In this document: one piece after another, positions 8,577 through 58,422 of the stretch
How positions within the stretch are numbered: position 1 is the first letter of the stretch
How the letters are laid out: the number at the start of each line of letters is the position of its first letter
DNA from: an uncultured bacterium
GTDB lineage: Bacteria; Armatimonadota; Abditibacteriia; Abditibacteriales; Abditibacteriaceae
Reading direction: 5' to 3'
NCBI GenBank assembly: GCA_963843795.1
Contig: CAWJLW010000006.1
Span: 186,001-250,000, forward strand
DNA: 64,000 nt
Made by a program: the position numbers and the translations under genes
Notes under the pieces: model-generated
The model's database searches: none
What the model was told of the DNA's origin: nothing
Seen by the model: only the letters and a program-made list of their open reading frames with translations

Positions 8577-10516
8577 ATGGCTGTTTATCTGTCTTCTGCT
8601 ACGCTGGGCAACGACCAAACTTTGTTGACTCTTGGGCACAGCGGTGAATTAATGGCGTGGTTTTATCCGCACAAAGACCACGCCCAACAAATCCGCGAAT
8701 GTATGCCCGCGGTTTATGTGCGCGACGAGCACGGTGGCCACGCACACTGGACGTGGAGCGATAGTCTTCACGCGCGTGCAAACTTATTTGCCGCAATCCA
8801 ACTTGCTGCGCACGGTTCTCGAAGCGACTTCGCTGGGCTTGCGCCTCACTTTCAACGATTGCGTGCCGCTGCACGGCGCGGTTTTAATTCGTCGAATTGA
8901 AATTGAAAACACTGGCGAACGCGATTTGCGCGCGGCGGTTTTTCATAGCGGCGATTGGAATCTGGGCGGTTTTTCTCAGGGCAATGCGCTGCGCTTCGAT
9001 CACGATCATCAAATGTTGCTGCAAAACCACCGCGAAGCCGCACTGGCGATTGGCGGCGACGCGGTCGAAAGTTGGAGCTGTGGCAAAGCCGGTGCGAATT
9101 GGGGCAACAATGCCAAACGCGCGGTCGAAAACGGTCATTTATACGACAACGATCTGGAAATTGGCGATGTCGGCTGGGCCTTTGGTTTCGACTGTGATTT
9201 GCACGCGGGCACTGCGCTGCAAAAAACTGCGGTTTTCGCGCTCGCCGCGACCGATGAAGCCGCTGTTGCCGCCGCGCTGCACGCGTTTCATAATGCCGAA
9301 AGTTTGTGTGCCGAACGCAGCGCAGCCGATGAGAAATGGCTGAGCAAAGGCACCAAAATGCTGAAGAAAGCGTTGGCGTCCAAAAAGAAGTTGCCCGAAG
9401 ATTTACAAGTCGCCTACGAACGCTCGCTGTTGTGTTTGCCCTTGTTGTGCGGCGAAGAAGGCGTTGCAGTTGCGGCGCCGGAATTCGATCCCGAATTTAT
9501 CGCGTGTGGCGGTTACGGTTATTTTTGGCCGCGCGATGGCGGCGAATATGTATCGGGCTTAATCGACGCCGGTTATCCGCAGTTCGCGCCCGCGATGTTC
9601 GATTGGTGCGCGCGCCATCAGGATGCGGCAGGTTTGTGGCATCAGCGCTATTTCTTCAACGGCGCGCCCGCGCCCAACTGGTGTTTGCCGCCCGATATGC
9701 TGCAAATCGATCAAGTCGGTGCGGTCTTGTGGTCGTATGGCAAGTATTTGCAGACCGCCAAAGGCAAACCCAAAAGCGCGCACTTGGAAATGGTGCGACG
9801 CGCGGCAGATTATCTGCTGTCGCGCCAAACCGAACGCGGCGTTCACGCCAACGCTTTCGATACGTGGGAAACTTTTATCGGTTCGTTCACTTACTCCAAC
9901 GCCGCAATTCATTCGGCTTTTCTGGTCGCGCATCAGCAGTTGGGCGACAGCAAGTACTTGCAGGCCGCGCAAAGCACCAAAGCTGGGCGTGCTGAAACAT
10001 TTCGTGCGCGAAAGCGACGATTACAAGTATTTGGTGCGCGGTCTGGACTCGCACGGAAACGCCGATGAAACCGTCGATTCTTCCTCGCTGGGCGCTATCG
10101 AACCATTCGGTTTATTGGATTTGAGCGATGATGAAGAATTGGAAATTGCGGTGGGCACGCTGCATATTATGCGCGAGCGGTTGGAAGTCGATTGGATGGG
10201 CGGTCGCGCGATTCGCCGCTTCGAGGGCGATGCCTATGTCGGCGGCGTTCCGGCGTGTGTGAACACTTTGTGGATGGCGCGTTGCTCGCTTCACGTCGCG
10301 GCGCGTTTGCGCGAATTGGGGCGTGTTGCGGAAGCCGATGAGATGCGCGACCGCGCGCAGGGATATTTGCAGACGGTTTTGAAACGCGCGACGCCGACCG
10401 GTTTGCTGCCGGAACTCATGCAGGGGCCGGAAGGTCAGACGTTTTGGGCTGCGCCGCACGGTTGGGCAATGTCGAGCTTTGTTTCGGGCGTTTTGATGCT
10501 GGCGAAACAGTTGTAA
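8577..10516 (+). CDS. Glycoside hydrolase family 15 (glucoamylase-like), two frameshifts (about 8765 and 9985)
   Basis: YGYFWPRDG, QIDQVG, DTWE and GLLPE motifs spread over ORFs 8577-8900, 8716-10068 and 9623-10516. The second shift is at a GGG run. Confidence 0.85.
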
Positions 10517-10550
10517 AAATGTAGAATTATCAGTTGAGCGCGTATTTATC

Positions 10551-10594
10551 TCAGCGTTTTTCGGAGGTTTCGACCTTTGGAAAACGCTGATTTT
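10551..10594 (+). terminator. Probable intrinsic terminator hairpin
   Basis: TCAGCGTTTT..TTCG loop..AAAACGCTGA followed by TTTT, downstream of the GH15 gene. Confidence 0.55.
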
Positions 10595-10608
10595 GTCGCA
10601 AAATCGCT

Positions 10609-11787: not shown

Positions 11788-11828
11788 AAGTGTGTGGCAA
11801 GTACTTGCCACAGGCGAAATTTCCTCTT

Positions 11829-14501: not shown

Positions 14502-14920
14502 AATGCGTGGCAAGTACTTGCTGCAAGTACTTGCAGGACGATGAAAAACTATTTTCAATAAATTTTTTCTTAGCTGTAGTTATCTTGATACGGTTTGTCT
14601 TCTCACTCAAATTTTCACTGTCAATCGGTTAAATTCTCAGTGCTGCGAGCGGTCGGATGGAGACCATCAGAGATCAGCCATGTAGCCAGCAGCAAAATCA
14701 GCAGCCCAAAGCCTTGCCATGACGGAGTTTGTTGAGTGTGCTCGCGGTAACTCTTTCAAAGCACGCCATTCCGATTGGCGCCGCCTTGCCACAGCGCGGT
14801 CGCTGTCATAAAAATGCGCCAATCGATCGGATAAAGTTCCCGAAATTGCTCGAACAAAAGAAAATCATGGGGAAACTTTTACCGACCGAAAATTTGCCCT
14901 GTGGAAATTTGCCGCAAACG

Positions 14921-17207: not shown

Positions 17208-17231
17208 TGCGCTGCAAGTACTTGCAGCGCA
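17208..17231. terminator. 24-bp perfect palindrome centred on the 12-mer, between convergent genes
   Basis: TGCGCT-GCAAGTACTTGC-AGCGCA with an A-rich left flank. Confidence 0.6.
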
Positions 17232-17284: not shown

Positions 17285-18418
17285 TCAGGCAGATTCGGCC
17301 AGTTCATCCAGAAAATCGGCGAGTTGCAAGCGGCTGGGACTGGCGGCGTTACGCACGTAAAAGCCGCTGGTCGCGACGCCGATTTGCAGCGCGCTTTCCA
17401 AATCGCCACCGATTAACAAACCGGTGCAGAAACCGGCATTGAAATGGTCGCCCGCGCCGGTCGAGATTTTTGGTTTGGGCGTATACGGGCCATCGACTGC
17501 CGCCAATTTTTCGCCATCGCCCGCTGCGGCAAACGCCGTGGGATGCACGACACAGGCGCGAATCCCCAGTTCGTTCTGAATCGTGCGCGCCGTGTTTTTC
17601 ATGATTTCTTTGGCGTCCGAACCTTCAATCGTTAGTGCAAGTACTTGCGCGACCTGGCCGCCTTCTTTTTCGTTCAATCCCAGCACCACATCGTGCGATT
17701 TGGAGAATTTCGCCAGCGTGCGCAGCGCTTTGCGCAAATCTTCGTGCGGACGTTTTTCGGGGTCGGCCAAATCGAAAAACAACAGTTTGCGCGCGCTATT
17801 TTGCGGCGGCTCGTCGTCATCGAATTCCTGCAAGGTTTCCCACAGCGCGGTGAGATGCGGTAACATCGTCCAGTTGACCATGCCGATGAACTGCGCGCCG
17901 TTCCACGCCGCGCGCCATTTGTCTTCGCCGACGCGCTCGACGAGCGTTTGATAAGAAACTTCCGCAACGGTCGCGTGCTTGCCGACGATCAATTTGCCGT
18001 CATCGAATTCGTAAGCGTCTGTCAGCGCAGGCTCGCACAGTGGTAGCAAATGCGCCTGACGCCCGAAATCGCGAAAAACCGGATGGGTTTCGGGATAGCC
18101 GGTCATGCCGCAATACGTCACTTCGATGCCCAGCGTGGCGAGCGCGTTGGCCATAATCGGCCCGTTTCCGCCCAGTTTCACGTTCTGAGAAACGATTTCA
18201 AAGTTGCTGCTTTTGCCCGCCGCCAAACCGATGCGCCGCGCATATTCGGTGATCGTTTCGACGCGCGAATACTCTTCCGCAGATGTGCGCTGATCGACGA
18301 CGTGCAAAATGGTGTCAATAAAACCATCGAAGCCCAGCAGGGCCGAAGTGTTGTGCAATTGTTCGCCGCGTGCGCGCAAAAGTTGTGCGGCGCGCGCGGG
18401 CAATGAAGAATTTTCCAT
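17285..18418 (-). CDS. PfkB/ribokinase-family carbohydrate kinase
   Basis: LGGNG at the N-terminus and STGAGDHFNAGF signature. Confidence 0.85.
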   Translation of the reverse strand: MENSSLPARAAQLLRARGEQLHNTSALLGFDGFIDTILHVVDQRTSAEEYSRVETITEYARRIGLAAGKSSNFEIVSQNVKLGGNGPIMANALATLGIEVTYCGMTGYPETHPVFRDFGRQAHLLPLCEPALTDAYEFDDGKLIVGKHATVAEVSYQTLVERVGEDKWRAAWNGAQFIGMVNWTMLPHLTALWETLQEFDDDEPPQNSARKLLFFDLADPEKRPHEDLRKALRTLAKFSKSHDVVLGLNEKEGGQVAQVLALTIEGSDAKEIMKNTARTIQNELGIRACVVHPTAFAAAGDGEKLAAVDGPYTPKPKISTGAGDHFNAGFCTGLLIGGDLESALQIGVATSGFYVRNAASPSRLQLADFLDELAESA

Positions 18419-18466: not shown

Positions 18467-18502
18467 AAAAAGCGCGTTGCAAGTACTTGCAACGCGCTTT
18501 TT
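18467..18502. terminator. 36-bp perfect palindrome (bidirectional terminator-like) centred on the 12-mer
   Basis: AAAAAGCGCGTT-GCAAGTACTTGC-AACGCGCTTTTT, overlapping the stop codon of the XRE gene. Confidence 0.8.
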
Positions 18503-18927: not shown

Positions 18928-20226
18928 TCAGCTCGCCAGCGCCATTTTCGCCGCGGCGCGACCGGCGACGGTTCCGCTGCTCCACGCCCACTGGAAGTTG
19001 TAGCCGCCGAGCCAGCCATCGACATCGCAAATTTCGCCCGCCAAAAATAAGCTTGGTTTGAGTTTCGATTCCATCGTGGCGGGTTCGATTTCGCTCAGGG
19101 AAATGCCGCCAGCGGTGGCTTCGGCGCGCGTATAATTGTCGATTTCGTGAACGGGAATCGGGCATGAAAACAATTGTTCGCGCGCCTGTTTTTGCGTCGG
19201 TGCGTCGAAACGGCCCAGAGGAATTTCGGGGAAAGGTTGGGCGAAAGTTTGCGCGACGCGGTTGGGGAAATGCGCTTGCAAAGCGGCAGCGAACGTTTTT
19301 TTGGCTCCCGTGCGCACGAATTCCTGCCACCAGCGGCCTTCGTCTTGCGGCTCGATTTCGGGCAGCCAGCGCACTTTTACTTGCGCTTTGGGATGTTCCC
19401 AGCGGCGGCGCGCGACGTGGCGGCTGATGTCCAATGCGACCGGGCCGGAATAGCCCAGATGCGTGAACAAAAACGAGCCGTCGCGAGTTTCCAGCGTTTG
19501 GTTTTCGTGATGCAGATTCAGTTGCACCGGCAGCGCGATGCCAGACAAATGCGCGTGCGGCAACGGTTGCGCCAAAAGCGGCGTGAGTGCGGGCGTAGTG
19601 CGAATGAGAGTGTGTCCCCATTGCAGCGCGAAATTGTAGCCGCTGCCATCGCTGCCAGTCTTGGGAAGCGCTTTGCCGCCGCTGCACAAAATCAATGCCT
19701 TCGCAGAATACGTGCAAGTACTTGCTGCGCCGTTTGAGACTTCGGTTGTGACTTGCCAATGATCGTCATTGTAAGCGATTTTCTGCACGCGCGAGCTGGT
19801 TTTTAGTTCGGCTCCGCTGGTTTCCAGTTCTTGCAACAAGGCGTTCAAAACGGTGCGTGAGGAATCGGAAACCGGAAAATATTTGCCGGTCGGTTCCAGT
19901 TTCAAGGGCACGTCGATAGCTTCGAAAAACGCGTGCGTGGCGCGCGCGTTGAAAGCACGCAGCACGCGACCGACGAACGAGCCGCGGCCATCGCCGCGTT
20001 TGGCGGCGTCGGGATTCGGGTCGCTTTCGGTGTGAAAGCGGCTGGGATGGATGAATTCGTTGGTGACGTTGCAGCGATTGCCGCCCGAAACCAGAATCTT
20101 GGCTCCGACTTTTTTGGCGCCGTCTAAAACTAAAACGCGCGCGCCGCGTCCGGCAGCGGCGATGCCCGCCATCAAACCGGCGGCACCGGCACCTACAATT
20201 AAAACGTCGTATTCTTTTGTGAGCAT
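18928..20226 (-). CDS. HI0933/BaiN/YhiN family NAD(P)/FAD-dependent oxidoreductase
   Basis: GAGAAG, KILVSGGNRCNVTN, LFTHLGYSGP, ATAGG and GEICDVDGWLGGYNFQWAWSSG. Confidence 0.93.
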   Translation of the reverse strand: MLTKEYDVLIVGAGAAGLMAGIAAAGRGARVLVLDGAKKVGAKILVSGGNRCNVTNEFIHPSRFHTESDPNPDAAKRGDGRGSFVGRVLRAFNARATHAFFEAIDVPLKLEPTGKYFPVSDSSRTVLNALLQELETSGAELKTSSRVQKIAYNDDHWQVTTEVSNGAASTCTYSAKALILCSGGKALPKTGSDGSGYNFALQWGHTLIRTTPALTPLLAQPLPHAHLSGIALPVQLNLHHENQTLETRDGSFLFTHLGYSGPVALDISRHVARRRWEHPKAQVKVRWLPEIEPQDEGRWWQEFVRTGAKKTFAAALQAHFPNRVAQTFAQPFPEIPLGRFDAPTQKQAREQLFSCPIPVHEIDNYTRAEATAGGISLSEIEPATMESKLKPSLFLAGEICDVDGWLGGYNFQWAWSSGTVAGRAAAKMALAS

Positions 20227-20355
20227 TTTGGAAGTTTGAAAGGGAAACTGTCAGTCGTGACCAAACAAGTATCCTGCAAGTACTTGCAGGATAGAGGAGA
20301 GCGCTTTCTAAGCAGTTTCCGACTTCCCTATCCTGCATTCCACCTTCTCTAAATT

Positions 20356-21651: not shown

Positions 21652-22995
21652 TTATTCCGGGCAGCGCCATTTCGCGCAAAACATTCCGTCGCAATTATCG
21701 CGCTGCGGTAACGTTTGCAGCGCGCCGTTTGCGGTCGCAAACGGGCTGCAAGTACTTGCGGGCGCTTCGAGCGTCCAATTGGCGTAACAATCGCTGAAAG
21801 CGCGTGCTTGAGCTTCGTTTTCTTCGGGTTCCAATGAACAAGTCGAATATGTTAACACGCCGCCGGGCTTGACCATTTGCGCGCAAATATCCAGCAATTC
21901 GCTTTGCAATTGCACCAGTTCCCGAATATTTTCGACTGATTTTCGCCACTTCAAATCGGGCCGTCGGCGCAACGTTCCGGTGCCCGAACACGGCGCGTCC
22001 AATAAAACCATATCGGCGCGCGGCAATTGATGGCGTTGGATGGCGGCAAGTACTTGCTGGGCCGAACCATCGAAAGTTTCTACCGATTTCAAGCCTAACC
22101 GAGCGGCGTTTTCACGCACTAATTTCAAACGTCCTGGGGCGCGATCTGCCGCGATGACGCGACCTTTATCGCCCATCAATTGCGCCAGATGGGTGGTTTT
22201 TCCACCGGGCGCCGAAGCGACATCGATCACAATTTGTCCACTTTGCGGCGCGGCGTTTAATGCCACTAACTGAGCGGCTTCATCTTGCGCGATGATATCG
22301 CCGCGCGTCCATAAATCCCAATCTACCGGCGCACCGCCGCGCTCAACGACCAAGCCGTGTGGCGAAACCGCGCTCGCTCGCGCATCCAATTCCTGCGCCT
22401 GCAACTGCTGCAAAACTTCCTCGCGCGATAAATGCAGCGTATTGGCGCGCAAATTTAAAGGGGCGATCTGATTATTGGCCGCGCACAATGCGCGCGTTGC
22501 GTCCAGCCCGAATTGGTGAGTCCAGCGTTCGACCATCCAACGCGGATGCGAACTTTCGATGGCCAGTTGCGATACTTCATCATCATTGGGGTTTGGCGCG
22601 CGCAAATCGGCGGGCAAGCGGCGCACAATGGCATTGATGAACGCGACTGCCGAGCGCGTTTTGGTTTGTCGCATCAGGCCCGCATATTCGTTGCCCGCGA
22701 CCTGAGCCGGTGTGCGCGTGCAGGCGATCTCGTAGGCCGCCAAACGTAACGCCGCGCGGACAGGCGCGTCGAGTTTGGTGATAGGTTTTTTAAGTAACGG
22801 TTGGATCGTCCAATCTAAGCGCAGTAAATTGCGCAGTGTGCCGCTGAGAATTTCGCGCGCGAAACCGCGCGTGGAAGAATCGAAATTGGCTTCGTCGAGA
22901 AGTGAAAGCGGCGCGCTTTCTTCGCTATCGAAACTCTGCAGCGCGCGCAACACGGTCAAGCGAGCCTGAGTTTTGGGATGAAGATTTAAAGGCAT
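21652..22995 (-). CDS. rsmB: 16S rRNA m5C967 methyltransferase RsmB
   Basis: NusB-like N-terminus, SHPRW, QDEAAQ, APGGKT, LDAPCSGTG, YSTCS..EENE; def-fmt-rsmB gene order. Confidence 0.95.
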   Translation of the reverse strand: MPLNLHPKTQARLTVLRALQSFDSEESAPLSLLDEANFDSSTRGFAREILSGTLRNLLRLDWTIQPLLKKPITKLDAPVRAALRLAAYEIACTRTPAQVAGNEYAGLMRQTKTRSAVAFINAIVRRLPADLRAPNPNDDEVSQLAIESSHPRWMVERWTHQFGLDATRALCAANNQIAPLNLRANTLHLSREEVLQQLQAQELDARASAVSPHGLVVERGGAPVDWDLWTRGDIIAQDEAAQLVALNAAPQSGQIVIDVASAPGGKTTHLAQLMGDKGRVIAADRAPGRLKLVRENAARLGLKSVETFDGSAQQVLAAIQRHQLPRADMVLLDAPCSGTGTLRRRPDLKWRKSVENIRELVQLQSELLDICAQMVKPGGVLTYSTCSLEPEENEAQARAFSDCYANWTLEAPASTCSPFATANGALQTLPQRDNCDGMFCAKWRCPE

Positions 22996-24083: not shown

Positions 24084-24700
24084 TACTTCGTGACGCGGTT
24101 TTTCAGCATTTTTGGCGCGTGTAAGTTCTTGGGTAAACGTTTCGATTTTAGAGCGTTTAGCACTTCTTCATCCGTTGTGGGTTCGAGAAAAATCGTTTCT
24201 TCGCCTTCATCATCCAAACCTTCAATAAGCCAGACCAAAGAATCGGCTTCGGCTTTCTCAACATAAAGCACGCCATCCAAATGATCCAGTTCGTGCTGCA
24301 CGCAAGTACTTGCGCGGCCCTGCGCGTCGCTGTCCTCGCATTCGTAGGTGACGGTTTTGCCCCGTTCGTTGCGACCAGTCACGACGACTTTTCTAGCGCG
24401 CGCAACTTCGCCCTGCACGCCGGGAATCGACAGGCAACCTTCGGTCCCCACGACTTGTCCGCCGTTGCGTTGAAGAATTTTCGGATTGATAAGGGCGTGA
24501 ATTTCTTCACCGCGCCGGAAAACGAAAATGCGACGCGAGACGCCGACTTGCGGCGCGGCCAAGCCGGCACCATCGGCAGCTTCCATGGTTTCTTTCATGT
24601 CTTCGATGAGCTTGCGGTCGGCGGATGTGATGCGGTCTACGGCGATAGCGCGGCGTTTCAAAATCGGGTCGCCCCAGATGCGTATTGGTAAAATCGGCAT
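24083..24700 (-). CDS. def: Peptide deformylase
   Basis: GAGLAAPQVG, EGCLS, QHELDH. Confidence 0.97.
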   Translation of the reverse strand: MPILPIRIWGDPILKRRAIAVDRITSADRKLIEDMKETMEAADGAGLAAPQVGVSRRIFVFRRGEEIHALINPKILQRNGGQVVGTEGCLSIPGVQGEVARARKVVVTGRNERGKTVTYECEDSDAQGRASTCVQHELDHLDGVLYVEKAEADSLVWLIEGLDDEGEETIFLEPTTDEEVLNALKSKRLPKNLHAPKMLKNRVTK

Positions 24701-24808: not shown

Positions 24809-27061
24809 ATGAACACATTTTCGCTTTCTCTTTTCGCCCTTTTGCCGTTCGCCATTTCGACCGTTCACGCACAAAACCCGCCGCAAGTACTTGCAGGGAA
24901 AAATCCATCCCCGCATTCGCTTTTGCGCATCGAAGCCCTGCCGCAAACTTTGGGAACCAACATTCATTTCACTCAGGCGCGAAAGGGTGAAATGGAAATG
25001 TTGCGGGCAGGCGGTTTTCGTCGCATTCGTATGGATTTCGGCTGGGGCGCGACCGAACGCGAAAAAGGAAAATACGATTTTTCGGCCTACGACCGTTTGC
25101 TCAAAGATATGGACGCGCAAAAGCTGCGCGCGTATTGGATTCTGGATTATGGCAACACGTTATACGCCAGTGCAGAAAACCGCGACGCCAGCCCGAACAA
25201 CGCCGCTTATTATGCGGCTTATTCGAAATGGGCGGCAGCAGCGGTCGCGCATTTCAAAGGTCGCGGCGTGGTATGGGAAATTTGGAACGAACCCAATATC
25301 GGTTTCTGGAAGCCCAAACCCAACGTTGATGATTACAGCGCGATGGCTTTGGAAGCGTGCCGCGCGATGCGAAAGGCCGCGCCCAAAGAGTGCATTATTG
25401 GCCCCGCGACTTCGGGCATCGACTTGCAATTTCTCGAAAAATGTTTTCAGAGCGGTTTGCTCGATTTGTGGGACGGCGTTTCAGTGCATCCTTACCGCCA
25501 GAGCGACCCCGAAACTGCCGCACCCGAATATCGCGCGCTGCGCGCTTTAATCGAACGCTATAAACCCAAGGGCAAAACAATTCCAATTATTTCGGGCGAG
25601 TGGGGCTACTCTTCGGCGTGGAGCGGCTATGATGTCGAGCGGCAGGGCAAGTACTTGCCGCGCCAGTGGCTGCTCAATCAATACGAACAAATTCCGATTT
25701 CGGTTTGGTATGACTGGCACGACGACGGAACCGACGAGAAAGAACCCGAACACCATTTCGGAAGCGTGCAAAACGCTTATCACGAAAACCGTACGCCAGT
25801 TTACGACCCCAAACCTGCGTATATCGCCGCGCAAACATTGTATCAAACGCTCGATGGTTTCAATTTCAATAAACGTTTATGGACGGGAAACGAAAAAGAT
25901 TGGATTTTGTTGTTCACACGCAGCAATGAAATTCGATTGGCGTGTTGGACAACTGATACCAAGCCACACGAAATTTCGTTTTCCGCTTCCAATGGCACAT
26001 TTTCGCGCGCCGATTATCTGGGCAAAAAGTTGACAGATGTAAACGCACAAAATCAGAAATTAAATTTGACTTTAAGCGATGGCGTGCAGTATGTGTGGCC
26101 GCAAAAACCGAACGCGTTATTGAAGCGTGCAGCCGCGTGGAAGCGTGTGCCTCTGGAAACTTTTGTCAGCGCGCCGCGCGGCGGTGTGCTGCGCGATAAC
26201 CTCGGTGTCAGCAATGCTATCAAAATGGATGGAAGTGCCAATTCTTATCAACAAAGCAGCATGGTTTCGGTCACCAATCCGCTGTTTGCCACGCCGGTTT
26301 CTGCGGTGGGTGCGCGCGGAGCAGTGCAAATTTTAAATCCCACCGGAGCGCCATTTAGCGGGAAACTGCGCGTTTCTATCGGTGCTAACACCACGCTGCA
26401 AGCATTGACTGTGATGCAGGGCGAAGCCGCGAAAACTGTGGAAATTGTGTTGCCCGCCAACGCTAAAGCCCAAACTACTTTGGGTGTTCAACTCTTGGGG
26501 AGCCAAAATCAGCCGCAAACTGGCTTGCAGAACGTGCGCTTTGTGCCGGTCGATGATTTCGCGCGTGCCGGTGCACTGGGCGATTATGCGGTCGTGCCCG
26601 ATGGCGATGCCAAAATCGCTTCCACACAAACTTTGAAAATCGAAAACGCGCCCGAAAAACTGCTGGGTCAGGACGTACCCGCGCTGCGTTTGGATTACAA
26701 ATGGGACGCGGGCTGGAAATTCGTGCGCGTTTTGCCGCCAAATGAAGTAAAAATCGAAGGTGCGCCCAAAGCCTTGCAGATGTGGATTTATGGCGATGGC
26801 AACAATCATCGCGCGCGTTTGCGCGTGCGCGATGCCGGCGGCCAAACCTTTCAGCCCAACGGCGTCGTGATTGATTGGAAAGGCTGGCGACCGGTAACGT
26901 TTCCGCTCGATGGCAGCACGGCCGGACATTGGGGCGGCGCAGACGACGGCAAAATTCACGGCGCCCTGAGCTGGGATTCGCTGTTTTTACTCGATAGCGC
27001 CGGAGCCGGACAAGGCACGATTTATCTGGCTGCGCCGACGCTGGTTTACGACGTGAAATAA
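24809..27061 (+). CDS. Secreted clan GH-A glycoside hydrolase (GH39/GH5-like) with a C-terminal carbohydrate-binding-like domain
   Basis: Signal peptide, WEIWNEPN acid/base motif, SVHPY, ISGEWG nucleophile, C-terminal IDWKGWR. Confidence 0.8.
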   Translation: MNTFSLSLFALLPFAISTVHAQNPPQVLAGKNPSPHSLLRIEALPQTLGTNIHFTQARKGEMEMLRAGGFRRIRMDFGWGATEREKGKYDFSAYDRLLKDMDAQKLRAYWILDYGNTLYASAENRDASPNNAAYYAAYSKWAAAAVAHFKGRGVVWEIWNEPNIGFWKPKPNVDDYSAMALEACRAMRKAAPKECIIGPATSGIDLQFLEKCFQSGLLDLWDGVSVHPYRQSDPETAAPEYRALRALIERYKPKGKTIPIISGEWGYSSAWSGYDVERQGKYLPRQWLLNQYEQIPISVWYDWHDDGTDEKEPEHHFGSVQNAYHENRTPVYDPKPAYIAAQTLYQTLDGFNFNKRLWTGNEKDWILLFTRSNEIRLACWTTDTKPHEISFSASNGTFSRADYLGKKLTDVNAQNQKLNLTLSDGVQYVWPQKPNALLKRAAAWKRVPLETFVSAPRGGVLRDNLGVSNAIKMDGSANSYQQSSMVSVTNPLFATPVSAVGARGAVQILNPTGAPFSGKLRVSIGANTTLQALTVMQGEAAKTVEIVLPANAKAQTTLGVQLLGSQNQPQTGLQNVRFVPVDDFARAGALGDYAVVPDGDAKIASTQTLKIENAPEKLLGQDVPALRLDYKWDAGWKFVRVLPPNEVKIEGAPKALQMWIYGDGNNHRARLRVRDAGGQTFQPNGVVIDWKGWRPVTFPLDGSTAGHWGGADDGKIHGALSWDSLFLLDSAGAGQGTIYLAAPTLVYDVK

Positions 27062-27129
27062 ACTGTTCGACAATGAACCAAACGCCTCGCAAGTACTTGC
27101 GGGGCGTTTTTAATGAGGAAGTGTATTTT

Positions 27130-27870: not shown

Positions 27871-27952
27871 AAACGCGTTGCAAGTACTTGCTGGCACAAA
27901 GTGCGCACTATGAAAACGCTTGTCTCAAAAAATACGTTCTTCAGGAGAAATT

Positions 27953-28681: not shown

Positions 28682-28703
28682 AGACGACTCAACTGGATTT
28701 TTT

Positions 28704-36894: not shown

Positions 36895-37141
36895 ATTTCG
36901 ATTGTACAATTTTTGTGTTGGCCAATCTATGGATGCCAAACTGAACGAAGAACTGGCGACGTGTGCGCAGCAGCAGCACAACAATATTGGTATGCAGCAA
37001 TTTTGTCCGACAGGCGCGGCTTCATGCGGAATTTTCGGGCAGAAAACCGCAATTTTTAAGATGCGGTTTTCTGCAGAGTAACGGTCTAAAGCCGCATTGG
37101 CAACCCGCGCACAAATGCCTGCGGCAAGTACTTGCCGCACG

Positions 37142-38964: not shown

Positions 38965-39133
38965 CCCCCACCCGGCCTCGTAAAACTCGGCCACCCTCCC
39001 CCGCAAGCGGGAGAGGGATTTTGGGTTTGTGCTCACTGCAAGTACTTGCAGCGAGATACTTACATGGTGAGCAGAAGTTTCCCTCTCCCGCTTGCGGGGG
39101 AGGGTGGCCGAGTTTTACGAGGCCGGGTGGGGG
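38965..39133. repeat. 54-bp perfect inverted repeat pair (REP/MITE-like) enclosing a 12-mer copy
   Basis: 38965-39018 is the exact reverse complement of 39080-39133. Each arm has internal hairpins (CCCTCCCCCGCAAGCGGGAGAGGG). Confidence 0.9.
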
Positions 39134-39543: not shown

Positions 39544-39633
39544 GTCTGCGCAAGTACTTGCACTGCCATTGCACATCTTTAATGTGAATTTAAATTCCGC
39601 AGCTTTTGAATCTGCTAAAACTCTAAGCTCGTT

Positions 39634-40560: not shown

Positions 40561-40598
40561 GAGCTTCGGCAAGTACTTGCCGAATGGTTTATAAGATT

Positions 40599-42296: not shown

Positions 42297-42351
42297 AATT
42301 GCGCTGCAAGTACTTGCGTATTCGCCTCATCTCCCAACAGGCCAAACCGAT

Positions 42352-43224: not shown

Positions 43225-43350
43225 AGGATTCCTTTTGCGATAGAGAAATTATAAGTTAGTGGCGCCCGCAAGTACTTGCCACACGTCCCGACTTGATAAA
43301 ATTGAATCGCGGCAAGTACTTGCACCGCGCATTACCGCTTCCAACGCACT

Positions 43351-44958: not shown

Positions 44959-45020
44959 AAAGATACAGCCCGGGCAAAGCGCAAGTACTTGCACCGATTA
45001 TTTGATTGCGCGTAACGATT

Positions 45021-46539
45021 ATGAAAACCAATTTTTTTCTCTGTAGCGCCACACTCATCGCTGCCACTTTCAACGTGCCCCCAACCCACGCCGCGCCGGT
45101 CGCACAAAACGCACCGACCGCGCAAAAATCGGTCGCTCCGCAGCTCTCTCTAGCACAATGGGCGCGCACGCAGAAAGCGCGACAGGCTTACGGGCTTTAT
45201 ATCACGGGGCGCAAAGTTGGTTATATGACGATGAACTTCGATGTCATCGCGCAGCCCGATTCTATGGGGCGCAGGCGCGATGTCGCAATTTCTGCTTCCG
45301 AAGTGACGTTGCGTTTACGCTCGACCGACCCGAAAACCGCGCCGGATATGGAAATTAAGACGCAATCGACGTTCGCCCTCAGCGACGAAGGGCGCTTAAT
45401 CGGTTCGCAGATGCAGCAAATCGAAAACGGGCGGCCCACGACTTATCGTTTGATTTTCGGTGCGCCGATGCAACTCGAAACCGATAGCGGCGGCAAGAAA
45501 GTCCGGCGCAATATCGCGCATCCACGGGAAAACTTGCTGCAAACGCGGCAGATGATGCAATGGCTGGAAAGCGTGCCCAAAAGCGGCGCCGAATTTTCTT
45601 ACCAGACGACTTCCTTAGATGATGAGAAGCTCAATTCGACAGAAACTCTCACTTTCCGCGGGCGCAAAACCATCGCTTGGGGAGGCATCAAAACACCGGT
45701 TTACAGCGTGAAAATGGATTCGCGCGGCGTGGGCTTTGAAGCCGATTTGCGCTCAAATGGAATGTTCGTCACGGGTCGCGTGGCAGGACTCATCGAAATG
45801 CGCGCTGAAGAAGAAAACCTGGCGCGCGATATGTCGAATGCAGGCGTTGATCTGCTGACGGCGTCTTTAATTCCCGTTGATAAACGATTGGGCGATCCGC
45901 GCGTTTTGAAATCGCTGACGCTGCAAGCCAATGGCGTGGCTGAACTTTCAATTCCGACCAGCAAACGGCAACAAGTCGTGCGGCGCGATGGGAAATTAAC
46001 CGTGCAAATGCGCGCCGATTTCTCTGGCAACGACGTGCAAGCTTGCCCCTGAGGAAAAGCGCCAATTCATGGCATCGACGACTTCACTGCAAAGTGATGA
46101 GCCATCGATTCGTGCGCTGGCCCGAAAAATTGTGGGCACGGAAACCGATCCGGTCGCCAAATCCGCCAAACTGGTGCATTGGGTTTACGCGAATCTGGGC
46201 AAATCGATGGATGCCAACGGCTCGACCGCGCTGCAAGTACTTGCCACACGCAAAGGCGATTGCACCGAACACGCGCTGTTGTTCACGACGTTGGCGCGTG
46301 CGGCGGGCGTGCCGGCGCGCGAAGTGACGGGTTTAGCATATGTGGAAACTCCCGATCCGGTTTTCGGCTGGCACGCTTGGTCGGAAATTTACGATGGCCG
46401 CCAGTGGGTAACGATGGACCCGACATGGAACGAAATTCGCGTCGATGCTTCGCACATCAAATTCGCCGACCGCAGCGATGATTATCGCTGGACGGGCGCG
46501 CTGGGAAAACTGAAATTGAAAGTGCTGGCCGTTGAGTAA
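45021..46539 (+). CDS. Secreted transglutaminase-like protein, frameshift at about 46035
   Basis: Signal peptide; C-terminal GDCTEH..HAW.E..W..MDPT catalytic triad lies in the shifted frame. Confidence 0.82.
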
Positions 46540-46602: not shown

Positions 46603-48426
46603 ATGATTTCTCCGCCCGCCGACCGCGTTGAAGCCGCGCCATTTCTATCCGATTGGCGCGGCTATTCATTGGCGAAAACGCGCGCTGATCTGGTCGCTGG
46701 TCTGACGGTTGCGGTTTTCGCCATTCCGCAAGCGATGGCGTATGCGACGCTGGCGGGTTTGCCGCCCATCCATGGTTTATACGCGGCGATTGGGATGTCG
46801 ATTGTGGCGGCTTTATGGGGCGCGTCGCCGTTTTCCAACGCCGGGCCAACCAATTCTGCAGCGCTGCTGACGGCTTCGGCGCTGTTGCCATTTCTCGCGG
46901 GCCAACAATTCGATAGCGGCGCTTTGACGGCGTTGATTTTTCAATTCACGCTTTTGGTGGGCGTGATTCGTGTGGCGTGTGGCGTGTTGCGATTGGGAAT
47001 TTTAACGGCATTCGTGCCCGAATCGGCGATTGTCGGCGCGATGAGCGGCGCGGGCATCCTCATCGCAGTTGGTCCGCTGTCGCAACTGCTGGGCGTGCCG
47101 TCATCGCACGCGGCATCGTTTGTGATGCGCACCTGGGAAGTGTTGGGAAACTCTGCACACGCTAATATCTATGCGCTTTTGATCGGTGCAAGTACTTGCA
47201 TCGTGATGTCGGTTTTTGAATTGTGGTCGAAAAAACGTCCGATTTTGAAACGGTTGCCGGTTGCCCTGGGCGCAATTATTTTGGCCACTATCGCCGCGCA
47301 AGTACTTGCCGCGCGCGGCCACGGCGTTTCCACTGTGCGCGATTTGGGCGCGATTCCGCCCGGCTTGCCGCCGTTGCAATGGCGCGCTTACGATTGGGCG
47401 ATGACGCCGCAATTGCTGCCGGGCGCGTTCGCGGTCGCGATTATCGGGCTAATCGAAGCGACTTCTATCGGGCGTGTACTGGCGCTCAAAAAGCGGCAGA
47501 ATTTCAACGCCAATCAGGAATTTTTCGGACAGGGCGTCGGCCAAATCGCGGGTGCGTTTTGTGGAGGGTTGCCGGGTTCGAGTTCGTTTTCGCGCTCGGC
47601 ACTGGTTGAAAACTGCGGCGCGCAAACGCGCTTTGCCAACGTGTTTTTTGGCGTTTTTACGCTCTTGGGAATTTTGTTGGCGGCAAGCTGGCTGGAGCGC
47701 ATTCCGGTCGCGGCCTTAGCGGGCTTGTTGGTGTTCAGCGGCTTCAAATTAATCGACATCGGCGCGTTGAAACGGGTGTGGCAGACCGAGCGCAGCGATG
47801 CGATTGTGCTTTTAGTGACCTTGTTCGTAACGGTTTTTGTGAAAATCGAATACGGATTTTTCGCGGGCACGATTGTGGCGATGGGCTTTTTTCTGCAGCG
47901 CGCGCGTAATCTGCAATTATTTGAATTGGTGCCGGGCGACGATGAAAACGAAGGCGCGGGCTTTGTCGAAATCGAATATCGGCCCCACAGCATGCACGCG
48001 CGCAGCGATGTGGTAGCGCTGAGCGTGCATGGCAATTTGTTTTTCGGTCTCGCCGACGATTTGCGCGCGCAGTTCAATGAAATCGCGCGCTTGCAAAAAC
48101 CGCGCTGGGTGATTATTCGCGTGCGGCGCGCGCATTCGATAGATTATGGCTGCTGGAACGCAATTTTCGAGTTCGCTGCGACGCTGAAGGGCGAAGGTGG
48201 CGCGCTGTATTTGTCGGGCATTAGCGAAGATTTGGCGCAGATTATCGACGATGCCGCAATGTCGCAAGTGTTGCCGCCGTCGCAATTAATCGCACCCCAA
48301 GAAGCGCCGTGGGCCGCATTTGAAATCGCGTTGGAATGCGTGCGCGGGCAATTGTCGAACGAGGCGCATTTGCCCGCCAACTGGCTGCGCTTTTTTCATC
48401 CGGCGCACGCTCGTTTTGAAATTTGA
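46603..48426 (+). CDS. SulP family anion transporter with STAS domain
   Basis: DLVAGLTVA..IPQAMAYA..GLY, NQE, SFSRS, C-terminal LFFG. Confidence 0.93.
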   Translation: MISPPADRVEAAPFLSDWRGYSLAKTRADLVAGLTVAVFAIPQAMAYATLAGLPPIHGLYAAIGMSIVAALWGASPFSNAGPTNSAALLTASALLPFLAGQQFDSGALTALIFQFTLLVGVIRVACGVLRLGILTAFVPESAIVGAMSGAGILIAVGPLSQLLGVPSSHAASFVMRTWEVLGNSAHANIYALLIGASTCIVMSVFELWSKKRPILKRLPVALGAIILATIAAQVLAARGHGVSTVRDLGAIPPGLPPLQWRAYDWAMTPQLLPGAFAVAIIGLIEATSIGRVLALKKRQNFNANQEFFGQGVGQIAGAFCGGLPGSSSFSRSALVENCGAQTRFANVFFGVFTLLGILLAASWLERIPVAALAGLLVFSGFKLIDIGALKRVWQTERSDAIVLLVTLFVTVFVKIEYGFFAGTIVAMGFFLQRARNLQLFELVPGDDENEGAGFVEIEYRPHSMHARSDVVALSVHGNLFFGLADDLRAQFNEIARLQKPRWVIIRVRRAHSIDYGCWNAIFEFAATLKGEGGALYLSGISEDLAQIIDDAAMSQVLPPSQLIAPQEAPWAAFEIALECVRGQLSNEAHLPANWLRFFHPAHARFEI

Positions 48427-49489: not shown

Positions 49490-50283
49490 AAAGTTTCACC
49501 CGGGTTTTCGATGCCCAGCGCGGCGAGAATTTGGCGCACTGCGTCTACGACTTCACTTTGCGTTGCCGAACGCGGCGGCGCGGCATCAATACAAACTTCG
49601 CAGGCGATGTGCGCGGGCGAGCCAGCGGAATCAGCTTGCAAGACGAGAATGCGGTCGGCGAGTTGCGCGGCTTCCTCGATGTCGTGCGTCACTAAAACAA
49701 TAGTGCGCCGCGTCGCATCGGGCGCGTTCGGTTGACCTAAAATTTCGGCCAATTCGCGACGCAAACGCAGGCGGGTCAGGTAATCCAGCGCCGAAAAAGG
49801 CTCGTCCAAAAGTAGTACGTCCGTTTCGCCAGCCAAAGCGCGCGCGATTTCAACGCGCTGTTTCATGCCGCCCGATAATTGATGCGGATAATGCGACTGA
49901 AAACCGTGCAAACCCAGCCAATTCATCAAACGTTCGGTTTCCTTCTCTTGCGCACTTTTTTCGAGGTGACGCAAGCCCAGTGCGATATTTTGACTGGCCG
50001 AAAGCCACGGTAATAAACCATCGCTTTGATAAACCGTGCGAAAATGACCGTAACGCTCGATTGCTCCTGATGTGGGATGTTCCGCGCCCGACATCAAATT
50101 CAAGAGCGTGGTTTTGCCGCAGCCCGAAGGCCCGACAATCGCCAGCCATTCGCCGCGCTTCACTGTTAAATCAACGTTTTGCAAAACTGCGTGCACGCCG
50201 TAACGATGCGAAACATTTTTCAATTGCAACGCGCATTCATCGTTGCAAGTACTTGCAGGGCGCTTTTCAGGCGAAATTTTCAT
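49486..50283 (-). CDS. ABC transporter ATP-binding protein (nitrate/sulfonate type)
   Basis: GPSGCGKTT, LSGGMKQR, LDEPFSALD. Confidence 0.93.
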   Translation of the reverse strand: MKISPEKRPASTCNDECALQLKNVSHRYGVHAVLQNVDLTVKRGEWLAIVGPSGCGKTTLLNLMSGAEHPTSGAIERYGHFRTVYQSDGLLPWLSASQNIALGLRHLEKSAQEKETERLMNWLGLHGFQSHYPHQLSGGMKQRVEIARALAGETDVLLLDEPFSALDYLTRLRLRRELAEILGQPNAPDATRRTIVLVTHDIEEAAQLADRILVLQADSAGSPAHIACEVCIDAAPPRSATQSEVVDAVRQILAALGIENPGETL

Positions 50284-51152
50284 CGTTCATAACCCCAGCG
50301 CACAATCGGCCAGCGCGTTAATCTGAGCAAAACGCGGTCGAGCAAAACACCGATAACGCCGATAGTTATCATGCCCACGACTAATAAATCCATGCGCGCT
50401 CCGTTGCGCGCGTCCCAAATTAAAAAGCCCAGCCCATCGCGTCCGGCCAGCATTTCTGCCGCGACGACGACCAGCCACGCCACGCCGGTCGTCACGCGCA
50501 GCGCGGAAACGATTTGCGGGGTAATCGCTGGCAGCGCGACTTCCCACAGCAAATTGGCGCCGCGTAAACCGAAATCTTGCGCCACGCGAAAATAAACTTT
50601 TGGAATGCTTTCCACCGCGTTCAATGTCGAGAGCGCGAGCGGGAAAACGCACGACATGAAAATCAGAAACATCGCGGGCACGTCACCGATGCCAAACCAC
50701 GCGATGGCAAAGGGAATCCACGCCAAGGGTGACAAGCTGCGCAAAAAATTCAAGCCCGGCAACAAAGCCGCGCGCGCTTGAATTTTCAAGCCCAGCCACA
50801 AGCCCATGGGAATTCCCACCAGCGCCGCCAACACTAAACCCACGCCAACACGAAAAAGCGAAGCGATAATATCGTCGAGCAAACGCCCGCCCGCCATCGC
50901 TTCTTGGAAGGCCGCAAGTACTTGCAGCGGCGCAGGAAACACCAGCGGCGACAAAAGGCGCGTTGCGCTGAGCAGTTGCCATGCAAACAGCGCGAAAATC
51001 AAAACCGCCCACGCGCTCCAACGCGCGGGCTGAGCCGCAACCGCAAGTACTTGCGGGCCGGAACGAGCCGCTGCAAGCGCACTTGTTGCTTCGGTCACTT
51101 CTGCGCCGCTTCCGGCTTCAGCGACAATTGATGAAGGAGAATTTGAATTCAT
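50280..51152 (-). CDS. ABC transporter permease (SsuC/TauC-like)
   Basis: PLAWIP, WFGIG, VAAEM..GLG. Confidence 0.92.
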   Translation of the reverse strand: MNSNSPSSIVAEAGSGAEVTEATSALAAARSGPQVLAVAAQPARWSAWAVLIFALFAWQLLSATRLLSPLVFPAPLQVLAAFQEAMAGGRLLDDIIASLFRVGVGLVLAALVGIPMGLWLGLKIQARAALLPGLNFLRSLSPLAWIPFAIAWFGIGDVPAMFLIFMSCVFPLALSTLNAVESIPKVYFRVAQDFGLRGANLLWEVALPAITPQIVSALRVTTGVAWLVVVAAEMLAGRDGLGFLIWDARNGARMDLLVVGMITIGVIGVLLDRVLLRLTRWPIVRWGYER

Positions 51153-52235: not shown

Positions 52236-52240
52236 TGACA

Positions 52241-52270
52241 AAGCGCGCTGCAAGTACTTGCAGCGCGCTT
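52241..52270. repeat. 30-bp perfect palindrome centred on the 12-mer
   Basis: AAGCGCGCT-GCAAGTACTTGC-AGCGCGCTT. Confidence 0.85.
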
Positions 52271-53664: not shown

Positions 53665-53725
53665 TTTTCGCGTTTCGCCTCGTGGCAAGTACTTGCAATT
53701 CCCAATTTCACTCAAACTGCTCGCT

Positions 53726-55480: not shown

Positions 55481-55486
55481 GCAAAG

Positions 55487-55522
55487 CAAAAGCGCCCCGC
55501 AAGTACTTGCGGGGCGCTTTTG
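55487..55522. terminator. 36-bp perfect palindrome (bidirectional terminator-like) centred on the 12-mer
   Basis: CAAAAGCGCCCC-GCAAGTACTTGC-GGGGCGCTTTTG between convergent genes. Confidence 0.8.
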
Positions 55523-55556
55523 TGTGTCTAATGTGCAACGTTAGCGGCTCGAATAT

Positions 55557-58422
55557 CTACGCGCCACCCGCCGCGCTCGCGTTACCTGCGGCATCGTTAC
55601 GCGCGGCGTAAGTTCCAGCGATCACCAGCGTGCCCATGCCGGGCTGCAAGTACTTGCGAGCGGCTTCATTGACCTGCGCGGGTGTGATGGCTTTGTAGTA
55701 ACTGTTGCGTTTCTGAATGTAATCGTTGCCCAAACCATACACTTCGGCGGCCAGTAATTGATTGGCCACACCCGCGTTAGTCGAAAGCGTAATCGCATAC
55801 GAACCGGTCAGGTAATCAATGACATCTTGCACTTCTTTACTTGTGAAACCTTTATCGCGCGCCAGAGAAATTTGGCTTTGCATTTCGGCGATAGCTTTAT
55901 CGACGTTGGCCGGATTACTGCCAAATTGCACCTTGAACGGGCCAGCACCCAGACTGGCATCGGTGCCCGCGTAAATGCCGTAAACCAAGCCCAAACGGTC
56001 GCGTACATTGACCGCGAGACGCGACGTGAGGCCACCACCGCCCAAAATGGTGTTCAGCACAATCACGCGATAAAAATCGGGATCGCTGCGTTTGAGATGT
56101 CCGGCGTAGCCATACAAAACATCGGCCTGAGTTTTATCGGGCACCATAATAACCGAAGTTTTGGTCGTTGCGGTGGCGATATTGGTATCGGGAATATCGA
56201 GCTTGGGCAGATTGCCCTGCTTTTTCCAGTCGCCAAAGCGCTGCTTGATTTCATCTGCGGCTTTGGCGCTGTTCACGTCGCCGACAATTGTCAAAATCAA
56301 GCGTTCCGGGCCGTAATGCGCCTGATAAAAATTCATCAAATCGTCGCGCGTGAAAGATTTGATGGCCGCGATACGTTCATCGAGAGTCGCTTCGTGATAC
56401 GGATGTCCGACCGGATAAATCGCATTCGCGAAGGCAATTTGGGCCAGCGTTCCGGTATCCTGACGCGCATCTTCCAGACCGGCTAAAGCGCGGGCGCGCG
56501 CCTTGTCAAGTTCGGCCTGTGGAAAGGCCGGATTGCGCAACTGGTCGGCGAGAATATCGAGCATGGTGCCGAAATCGCCGGTCAGCGAACGACCGCCCAA
56601 CGACACGTATTCGTCGCCAGCACCAATATTCGCGCTGGCGCCGACATCTTCCAGAGTGCGCGCGATGTCCAATAGCGAACGTGTTGTCGTGCCGCGCGAC
56701 AGCAAGTCGGCGGTGAATGCGGCCAGGCCGGGTTTATTCTGCGGATCGAAAACACTGCCCGCCGAAAGCAGCGCGCCGCTGAGAGAAACCGCTGGTGTGG
56801 CGTGGTTTTCCTGCACAATGACCGTGATTCCGTTGTCGAAAACCAAACGTTTGGGTTCGACTTTCAGCGCGGGTTTGGCTTGCGCATTAGCCTTAATTTG
56901 AATTGCCGTGTTCGCAGACTTTTGCGGCGTGTTCGGCGTCAGGCGCGGCTCGGTTTTGGCATCGGCCACAGTTTCAATAACTGGCTTGGCTGCGAGCTTT
57001 GCGGATGGAATATTTTGCGTGGTGGTCTTTGTTTTCTCCGCGACAATCGGCTCGAAATAACCAACGGTACGATTGTTTTCGACGAGATACTTGTTGGCGA
57101 CGCGCTGGACATCGGCGGGTGTGACTTTGCGCAGATTTTCCAGATAGGTTTCGCCATAACGCCAATCGCCACGCATCGCGTTGCCGCCCAGTTCGCTGCC
57201 CTGCGACTGGACTGAATCCTGACCGAACACATACTGCGCTTCGGCCTGTTTGAGGGTGCGCTTGAGTTCGGCAGCGCTGATCGGCTCGGTTTTCACACGC
57301 TCGATTTCGGCCAACAAGGCTTTTTCTAATTCGGCATTTGTGTGGCCGGGTTGCGCAGCAGCGTCGAGATAAAACAAATCGGGATCGCGTAAACCGTAAT
57401 CGTAGGCATTGGCGTCTGAGGCCAAGCCGCTTTGCACCAATTTTTCAAAGAAGCGCGCGGTGCGTCCACCGGATAAAACGTTTTCCAAAACGTCCAGAGC
57501 ATAACGGTCGGGATCGCCAAAACCGGGAATGTGATAGACGATTTGTATTTGCGGCGTCGTGCCTGCGCGACGCACGATCACGCGGCGTTCGCCCTGCTGC
57601 ACCGGTTCGGGCGTGATGAAATGGCGCTGAATCGGGCGTTTCGGGAATCGCACCGAAATACTTTTCCAGCATCTTCATCGCATCGGCGGTGGCGAAATCG
57701 CCGACCATAACCACAGTCGAATTTTCGGGCGCGTAATAATTGCGATAGTAATTGTACATTTCATCGCGCGAAATGTTTTCGATGTCGGAACGAAAACCAA
57801 TCGGTGTCCAACGATAAGGATGAACTTGAAATGCCGCCAAGCGCACCGCTTTACTCAGCGCGGTGCCCGGATTATTTTCGCCACCTTCATATTCCGAGCG
57901 TACAACCGTCATTTCTTTCTGGTGCTCTTTTTCGTCGAAAAGCGAATTCACCATGCGGTCGGCTTCCAACTGCATTGCTTTTTCCAAGCGGTCTGAGGCG
58001 ATGGTTTCAAAATAATTGGTGCGGTCGAATGAAGTCGTCGCATTGAACTGGGCGCCATTCTGCTGCAAATAAGCGCTGATTTCGCCCGGTTTGCGCGTCT
58101 TGGTGCCCTTGAACATCATGTGCTCGAGCAAATGGCTCATGCCAGATTGTCCTACTTGTTCGTTAACTGAACCAACGTTATACCAAACCGAAAAATACAC
58201 AACCGGAGCGCCACGCACTTCTTTGGTCAGCACTTTGACGCCATTGGATAAAACCGATTCGCGAATGCCATTAAGCATCATCGGTAGCGGTGACGTTTTT
58301 AAAGTGGATGTAGGAACTGCGGGCGCGGCGTGAACCGGAAATTGTGCCCACAAAGGTGCGATGAGTAATAGGGGAAGCGATAACAAACGTGACTTTTTGG
58401 AAGACCTTTTCATCGTGTTCAT
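55557..58422 (-). CDS. M16 family (insulinase/pitrilysin) zinc peptidase, frameshift at about 57643
   Basis: HLLEHMMFKGT, NATTSFDRTNY, second half SRL..VR..LGLVY; a single extra base joins the two ORFs. Confidence 0.9.

Follow-up and report, generated by a model that had tools for sequence, protein, structure and literature searches.

Known iterated words and the palindrome of an Abditibacteriaceae genome

Sequence-specific uptake of self-DNA is described for only two bacterial families (PMC12616744). The tags in question, the DNA uptake sequences of Neisseriaceae and the uptake signal sequences of Pasteurellaceae (DUS/USS), are non-palindromic words with a CTG or GCGG core. A different iterated word, the highly iterated palindrome HIP1 (GCGATCGC), is found together with alternate HIPs in cyanobacteria (PMC4390886, PMC5861425, PMC13756078) and its function is open. 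The present analysis concerns GCAAGTACTTGC, a perfect 12-base palindrome with an AGTAC core that is iterated in the genome of an uncultured Abditibacteriaceae bacterium (the studied genome, G000) and that may be an uptake tag of the DUS/USS kind. The stretch of DNA in which it was noticed, called the window below, has a length of 64,000 nucleotides (G000:C6:186001-250000; GenBank assembly GCA_963843795.1, contig CAWJLW010000006.1); the coordinates of its features count from the window start.

The motif works like DUS/USS and HIP1 but belongs to neither. It shares with DUS/USS a density near one copy per kb, an even spacing, a bias towards intergenic regions and terminators, an origin by point mutation, a tripeptide imprint with a frame bias, dialects with a conserved core and AT-rich flanks (PMC2817400, PMC7811141, PMC12616744). 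Genes with a coding copy represent 18% of the total (577 of 3,153) compared with published values of 22% and 39% for DUS/USS, and the motif is likewise scarce in newly acquired DNA, as judged by eye from motif-free stretches. It differs from DUS/USS in sequence and phylum, in its perfectly palindromic form in G000 (only G006 and the CAGCCACG clade, both described below, have asymmetric forms) and in its phased flanks, which extend on both sides to about 70 bp. With HIP1 it has in common the perfect palindrome, the thousands of copies, the occurrence in three frames and in non-coding DNA, the partly conserved positions, an orphan methyltransferase in the clade and uptake as a proposed function. 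However, it spans 12-16 bp rather than 8, is 8- to 20-fold denser in intergenic regions than in genes, has an extended consensus with strongly phased flanks and exists as several dialects in one family; word and phylum also differ. GTAC does not occur in the available text of two HIP papers (PMC4390886 and PMC13756078). No published account of the motif was found among the open-access papers listed, and none of them contains the exact 12-mer.

Abundance, spacing and gene context

The studied genome carries 2,563 non-overlapping copies of GCAAGTACTTGC in 4.30 Mb (0.60 per kb), where a fifth-order model predicts about 7, together with about 500 copies that have one mismatch. According to our own gene calls (3,517 genes, the motif being masked during training), 1,754 copies are intergenic, 803 lie inside genes and 6 on gene edges, which corresponds to a non-coding share of 69% and a coding share of 31%. 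Density is 0.22 per kb in coding sequences and rises to 1.8 between divergent, 3.0 between tandem and 4.2 between convergent genes, the last forming the densest class. About half of the intergenic regions contain exactly one copy at all lengths from 30 to 800 bp, and the motif is present in 232 of the 472 divergent regions.

Spacing is more even than expected from a Poisson process (variance/mean of 0.51 in 5-kb bins). The copies number 47 to 83 per 100 kb on both replichores and at the skew maximum, with no visible origin-terminus or replichore bias. Coding copies occur at half density less than 200 bp from an intergenic copy and at nearly twofold density more than 1.5 kb away. They fill long gaps: 70 gaps exceed 4 kb, against 115 when the coding copies are shuffled. 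There are no arrays, since the ten clusters observed hold at most 4 copies per 1.2 kb, and inspection, which did not include a search for the RAYT and Ssn families, revealed no obvious nuclease beside them. The four longest motif-free stretches include insertion sequence, restriction-modification, type IV secretion system-like and tail-like genes, as assigned by eye without family searches. Of the motif-free segments G000:C6:3590136-3623414 and C3:1-32022, one combines 63% GC, VirB-like genes and a contig end, and by inspection is a candidate for foreign or misjoined DNA; the other contains a tail-like cluster.

The extended consensus consists of an A-tract, a GC-rich arm, the core flanked by CT and AG, a second GC-rich arm and a T-tract. 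Judged by folding only, a terminator-like shape is adopted by 65% of the 273 convergent copies, 23% of the tandem, 9% of the divergent and 2% of the coding ones.

Imprint on the proteome

Tripeptide and codon usage were analysed in 2,786 genes of at least 450 bp, leaving out the first 30 codons. Across the genome the coding copies are read as QVL (501), KYL (166) or ASTC (136), and QVL, STC, KYL and VLA occupy ranks 1 to 4 in over-representation among 7,996 tripeptides. QVL is found 838 times, compared with about 307 for permutations of its residues, and 498 of these are encoded by CAA GTA CTT (0.4% expected). Similarly, AAG TAC TTG encodes 182 of 292 KYL (4% expected) and the exact motif encodes 103 of 119 ASTC (0.2% expected), a tetrapeptide for which 3.3 occurrences would be expected in all. 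Ten synonymous resamplings yielded 2 to 8 coding copies compared with 683 observed. A first, sequence-only reading of the window had proposed that the motif acts at the DNA level, a view that its presence in all three frames, its fixed rare codons and its non-coding majority bear out; genome-wide, these peptides do not use synonymous codons at background frequency. The same reading held that identical codons are used every time, which is trivial for sites listed as matches to the motif, although the genome-wide codon shares confirm the bias. Its claim that the genome favours GC-ending codons is partly true: CAA and AAA are preferred over CAG and AAG, whereas GTA (7%), CTT (8%), GCA (12%) and AGT (12%) are indeed rare.

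The G000 proteins were compared with orthologues sampled from 440 kb of G009, 220 kb of G006, 66 kb of G001 and about 290 kb of other relatives. The motif codons are gap-free in 92 of the 110 site alignments from all samples. In a filtered set restricted to the best match per gene in G009, G006 and G001 with at least 45% identity (68 sites), 42 sites show no net length change, compared with 60 expected from random positions. Orthologue identity is 36% at motif codons and 63% at random positions. The def gene provides a clear example: its relatives carry GCC GCC ACC TGC (AATC; RAATCV in 75 of 120 homologues) at the motif position, where GCCGCCACCTGC is replaced by GCAAGTACTTGC without a gap and with untouched flanks, and ASTC is common to the four closest homologues. 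The named homologues of def come from Abditibacteriaceae, and the assignment of the genome to this family is based on them. The alignments thus agree with the earlier proposal that the motif arises mostly by substitution at tolerant residues. From these comparisons, substitution in variable regions is the dominant origin of coding copies, while a minority may be insertions (see below). No copy is present in the 16 genes that are more than 80% identical to those of relatives (14 kb).

Dialects, a second motif and GTAC avoidance

Exact GCAAGTACTTGC is limited to 0 to 3 copies per genome in all 40 relatives searched. Dialects built on the AGTAC core are found in 7 of the 27 family genomes, and CGAGTACTCG reaches 1,834 to 3,166 copies in 4 of the 27. 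Those sampled are CAAAGTACTTTG in G001, WTCGAGTACTCGAW in G009, G015 and G019, CGAGTACTCG in G012 and CAAGTACTTG in contigs L219 and L220. The G006 dialect, AGTACGGTCGA, is asymmetric and occurs both as single sites and as inverted pairs (141 sites, of which some form 32 pairs with a spacing of 14 bp). The AAGTACTT types are found in g1, the GAGTACTC types and AGTACGG in g6. As in DUS/USS, the dialects follow phylogeny: in a tree of def and comEC the AGTAC types fall into two clades with weak deep nodes (55-75%), one of which includes the motif-free G017.

The G009 core stands in register at 8 of 40 G000 coding sites. Where both proteins read VL, the core is in register at 8 of 12 sites; the corresponding figure for the remaining shared VL is 14 of 197 (Fisher p 1.6e-6). 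This suggests that some sites are older than the dialect split. With the closer contigs L219 and L220, none of 8 G000 sites and none of 12 L219/L220 sites is shared; deep site conservation with these contigs is not seen, and site turnover is real.

Counts of RAGTACK divide the 27 family genomes into 7 iterators, 13 near-total avoiders and 7 intermediates. Avoiders have 2 to 40 occurrences per strand compared with 500 to 1,600 for controls; 120 kb of G014 contain no GTAC at all. GTAC is near normal in G010, G021 and G023, while its avoidance extends to G025 and to 12 of 136 genomes of the phylum outside the family. CTAG is nearly absent too in several of the GTAC-avoiding genomes. GTAC-rich contigs or stretches exist within avoider genomes (G024:C98, G020:C179 and G013:C24) and are likely to be foreign DNA or mis-binned contigs.

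Three avoiders, G007, G016 and G018 (3 of 31 genomes), carry an unrelated asymmetric motif, CAGCCACG, without GTAC. It is strand-balanced with 2,100 to 2,700 copies per genome and is a candidate DUS-like motif in its own right. It is single in genes and, in G016, pairs up in inverted orientation with a spacing of about 33 bp. Other local repeats were observed in samples of 14-20 kb (L083 of G020, L080 of G005 and L075 of G016): 16 copies of CATTTTTTGTGG, 7 copies of TTGACGTTATC and a 75-copy array.

The motif as a putative uptake tag

Our best explanation, to which we assign a probability of roughly 45%, is that drive has spread GCAAGTACTTGC as an uptake tag similar to DUS/USS, termination being a secondary role. 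It is preferred because all the listed genomic properties of DUS/USS are present except non-palindromy, and some members of the family do have asymmetric forms. Under this model, fragments in which bendable DNA surrounds the AGTAC-cored word would be favoured by a surface receptor of the type IV pilus or competence machinery. Preferential uptake followed by homologous recombination would establish new copies at any site where the protein can accommodate them, and fixation would continue until most fragments of 1-2 kb hold a copy. Between convergent genes, the copies are predicted to act additionally as terminators in both directions. Competence itself belongs, with the receptor, the drive and the terminator role, to what we infer from genomic anatomy.

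The studied genome includes comEC, comEA, dprA, comM, PilB/PilT-type ATPases and secretins, as well as 58 prepilin-type N-termini, several of them in a pilB/pilT/pilC locus (C6:391-402 kb). In G009 (C1:2145624-2176085) about 29 kb separate the parts of the comM gene; the gene contains stops in G017 (C50:123370-124440) and is accompanied in G010 (C1) by more than 20 fragments of its 3' end, a pattern consistent with its use as an integration site.

Several observations weigh against the uptake tag. The competence genes are equally present in motif-free relatives (comEC in 27 of 27, the others in 5 of 5) and so do not discriminate. The motif is palindromic in G000, unlike known uptake sequences (PMC2817400), and its phasing over about 70 bp on both sides exceeds the two AT tracts of USS (PMC12616744); such long two-sided phasing looks like wrapping on an intracellular protein. 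Close pairs are spaced by multiples of about 10 bp, for which uptake has no obvious need. Coding sites less than 300 bp apart number 53 compared with a crude expectation of 39, that is, weak clustering and no repulsion. The uptake model does not explain why 13 relatives have lost GTAC almost completely. Finally, no receptor was found, the likeness to uptake sequences being one of genomic anatomy.

Phased flanks and a possible wrapping protein

A/T dinucleotides peak at about 15, 25, 36, 46, 57 and 68 bp from the dyad on both sides of the motif, with a best period of 10.5 bp and an amplitude of 0.041, compared with 0.005 in controls chosen to match the sites in their first A-tract and in coding status. 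The phase is equal in coding, convergent, tandem and divergent copies (amplitude 0.049-0.056) and is retained at copies with one or two mismatches, but is not seen at the other GTAC sites of G000 (0.005). Close pairs of copies are in helical phase (permutation p <1e-4). An amphipathic-helix artefact is ruled out by a control on non-motif xVLx and by the intergenic copies, and a general genome periodicity by the matched controls. Phasing lies above the 99th percentile of the null in G009, in G001 and for the CAGCCACG motif; with the same null it is not significant in G012, L219/L220 and G006. A Neisseria DUS control is phased on one side only (0.035 compared with a 99th percentile of 0.032; 163 sites) and HIP1 on a Nostoc plasmid is borderline at the 95th percentile (0.021; 134 sites). 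Such A/T phasing amounts to coherent bending over about 140 bp, and the half-turn positions of the A/T peaks resemble those of nucleosomes.

This long symmetric phasing underlies the strongest rival, according to which an intracellular protein that wraps or bends DNA, either a nucleoid protein or gyrase acting with an adaptor, would bind sites that have the palindrome as their dyad. Such binding would serve chromosome organisation or supercoil relief about once per gene, the sites being kept by weak selection. We regard this as possible, if rather unlikely. The identical phase in the four site classes and in mismatch copies, its absence from other GTAC sites, its survival of the xVLx control and the helical phase of close pairs all speak for it, as does the single copy carried by about half of the intergenic regions whatever their length. 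The E. coli gyrase motif, a symmetric 130-bp pattern with a period of 10.75 bp, offers a precedent: symmetry over 130-140 bp, an A/T period of 10.5-10.75 bp and a 4-bp centre are common to both (PMC6379681). However, the gyrase consensus is degenerate where the 12-bp core of the motif is exact, and its A/T runs, read by eye from row DS10, lie about 19, 28, 38, 49 and 60 bp from the dyad, so that the peaks of the motif are about 3 bp nearer (PMC6379681). GyrA is single-copy and was rejected as reader of the dialects, no dialect-linked residue being present in its DNA-gate region (GyrA alone was compared), and the histone fold PF00808 was not found in any of the 5 genomes scanned. The quick turnover of dialects and the apparent loss of the motif in G017 are better suited to a non-essential self tag; DUS is also phased to some degree, and phasing is not significant in two of the dialects (G012 and L219/L220).

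GyrA of G003 (L289) and G017 (L293) does not have a segment of 12-16 residues near residue 430 that is kept in the other members. Both genomes are devoid of the AGTAC motif yet group with motif bearers.

The E. coli SlmA-binding site is also a 12-bp palindrome and has a central AGTACT. SlmA gives 52 peaks in chromatin immunoprecipitation and is excluded from the terminus region Ter (PMC3020112). In contrast to SlmA and Noc sites, the 2,563 copies of the motif are even over the origin and terminus halves, and the shared AGTACT is probably a coincidence.

A further version is a positioning code in which each palindrome would mark the dyad of a nucleosome-like particle, with about 140 bp of pre-bent DNA wrapped around it, and in which a sequence-specific non-histone protein would place one such particle per gene. 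The recognition word of this protein would have been rewritten genome-wide several times in the family, proteins included. We consider this version improbable.

An orphan methyltransferase

The studied genome has one match to N6_N4_Mtase, an orphan M.RsrI-like beta-class methyltransferase (C6:2517365-2518135, L140) without a conserved neighbour gene, and none to Dam-like or m5C methyltransferase families. The target of M.RsrI is GAATTC. The orphan gene is found in 22 of the 27 family genomes, including 7 of 7 iterators, 12 of 13 avoiders and 3 of 7 intermediates. The cultured member Abditibacterium utsteinense possesses it as well (P0139). It is broken by stops in G013 and G022, is missing from G010, G021, G023, G016 and G025 and was not detected at 1e-45 in the 136 phylum genomes outside the family.

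In a HIP1-like scheme the GTAC core would be marked by this enzyme, and the extended palindromes would be made and kept through repair, recombination or uptake linked to that methylation. Its occurrence in every iterator and its absence from the three genomes with near-normal GTAC are in keeping with this, the occurrence of HIP sequences follows that of orphan methyltransferases (PMC4390886), and transformation is raised when HIP1 is methylated (10.1101/2024.09.10.611283). Nevertheless the scheme is distinctly improbable. GTAC is avoided without the enzyme in G016, in G025 and in the 12 phylum genomes mentioned above; the enzyme is present alike in iterators, in avoiders and in genomes of neither kind (15 of 20 non-iterators have it); several dialects cannot be set by one enzyme; and the CAGCCACG motif contains no GTAC. 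The link between methyltransferase and motif is weak. The PabI-type GTAC restriction family PF09522 gave no match in 31 genomes, in a search whose control was silent as well. Helicobacter pylori, where GTAC is scarce, the methyltransferase conserved and the nuclease patchy, provides a precedent (PMC2588503).

Insertions and terminators

In the filtered orthologue set the G000 protein is longer at 19 of the 68 sites (by at least 6 residues at 5 of them) and shorter at 7, hence the possibility that a minority of the coding copies are insertions. The ASTC copy at 32256 lies within a perfect 50-bp palindrome (32237..32286, minus strand, gene 31230-32777) that is a candidate for insertion or duplication rather than substitution. 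These cases, the intergenic location of 69% of the copies and the hairpins that many of them form recall a small mobile palindrome similar to repetitive extragenic palindromic (REP) or SRM elements, which a cognate transposase or nuclease would have spread and whose insertions would survive in decayed form as the coding copies; ssn genes are indeed flanked by SRM hairpins (PMC11893778). Such an origin appears very improbable given the 42 sites without length change, the clean substitution in def, the lack of arrays, the over-even spacing and the 31% of copies that are coding. A terminator hairpin alone, with coding copies as by-products, would suit the dense and largely terminator-like convergent class but is scarcely tenable and largely refuted by the many divergent regions that carry the motif and by the 803 coding copies that fill gaps and keep phased flanks, in agreement with the sequence-only view that the motif is more than a terminator. 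The five readings (uptake tag, wrapping-protein site, methylation-linked palindrome, mobile palindrome and terminator) are not mutually exclusive.

Copies in the window

The window contains 47 copies, 19 coding (one of them probable) and 28 intergenic. The 18 coding sites listed in the sequence-only reading are all exact GCAAGTACTTGC starts inside genes and in the frames given, namely 9 xQVLA, 6 ASTC and 3 xKYLx by our gene calls; the copy at 27089 was absent from it. The hosts it named, def, RsmB, ABC-F type (ABC_tran_Xtn/CTD), SulP and MFS, were recovered by Pfam, whereas, of the 13 host proteins scanned, those of 8776-10068 and 31230-32777 have no Pfam match. Short-read contigs of run X1, which may be the source sample, are identical at 21748, 24302 and 25647.

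On the plus strand, SKYLQ is encoded at 9950..9961 (gene 8776-10068), PQVLA at 24883..24894 and GKYLP at 25647..25658 (both in a GH5-like gene, 24809-27061), PQVLA at 29081..29092 (MFS transporter, 28662-30176), LQVLA at 46233..46244 (transglutaminase-like open reading frame, 46132-46539), and ASTC at 47188..47199 and AQVLA at 47298..47309 (both in SulP, 46603-48426). The probable copy, RKYLR at 27089..27100, is located at codon 6 of 27073-27870, the start of which is uncertain. On the minus strand, besides the palindromic site at 32256, AQVLA is encoded at 17637..17648 (PfkB/Khk-family kinase, 17285-18418), ASTC at 19714..19725 (HI0933-like flavoprotein, 18928-20226), ASTC at 21748..21759 and QQVLA at 22046..22057 (both in rsmB, 21652-22995), VQVLA at 37419..37430 (ABC-F-type ATPase, 37142-38929), ASTC at 50245..50256 (codon 10 of an ABC ATPase, 49486-50283), LQVLA at 50914..50925 and PQVLA at 51043..51054, codon 33 (both in an ABC permease, 50280-51152), and RKYLQ at 55646..55657 (M16 peptidase, 55557-57602). 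The def copy, an ungapped substitution of AATC by ASTC, lies at 24302..24313 on the minus strand (gene 24083-24700), directly ahead of the QHELDH motif. Around it, 24238..24377 illustrates the extent of about 140 bp of the phased flanks, a statistic of all sites and not of this one in particular.

Intergenic copies, to which no strand is assigned, lie between tandem genes at 6891..6902, 8472..8483, 11797..11808, 18479..18490 (extended by 12 bp, with a terminator-like hairpin), 27880..27891, 32788..32799, 34539..34550, 37124..37135, 39550..39561, 40569..40580, 44981..44992, 52250..52261 (extended by 9 bp), 53685..53696 and 58560..58571. Those between convergent genes are found at 14510..14534 (two copies, 13 bp apart), 17214..17225 (palindrome extended by 6 bp), 30589..30600, 42306..42317, 55499..55510 (extended by 12 bp, with a terminator-like hairpin), 60816..60840 (two copies, 13 bp apart) and 63245..63256, and those between divergent genes at 20276..20287, 39038..39049, 43268..43323 (two copies, 44 bp apart) and 61861..61872. 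A DUF559 gene (39160-39543) is flanked by the copies at 39038 and 39550, an arrangement often expected by chance since half of the intergenic regions carry one. No copy precedes 6891; positions 47-6944 are a long stretch of repetitive secreted-protein sequence that is fragmented into numerous overlapping reading frames, probably because of frameshift errors or because a recently acquired region is decaying. Rfam gave no match over the window. The 16-mer form has at least 36 single matches in unrelated taxa among 15 of the 64 parts of the sequence collection, which is uninformative.

Significance

If the uptake tag is confirmed, Abditibacteriaceae would join the two bacterial families in which uptake is already known to be biased by sequence. 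At least six dialects, an unrelated second motif, motif-free genomes and GTAC-purging genomes within one family form a natural comparative series, which serves to find the reader and to ask how tags arise and switch. The 140-bp phased flanks provide a physical handle that separates uptake from chromosome architecture and that could be looked for at other iterated motifs. On the practical side, the motif tells native from foreign DNA, and it may be what transformation of these bacteria needs.

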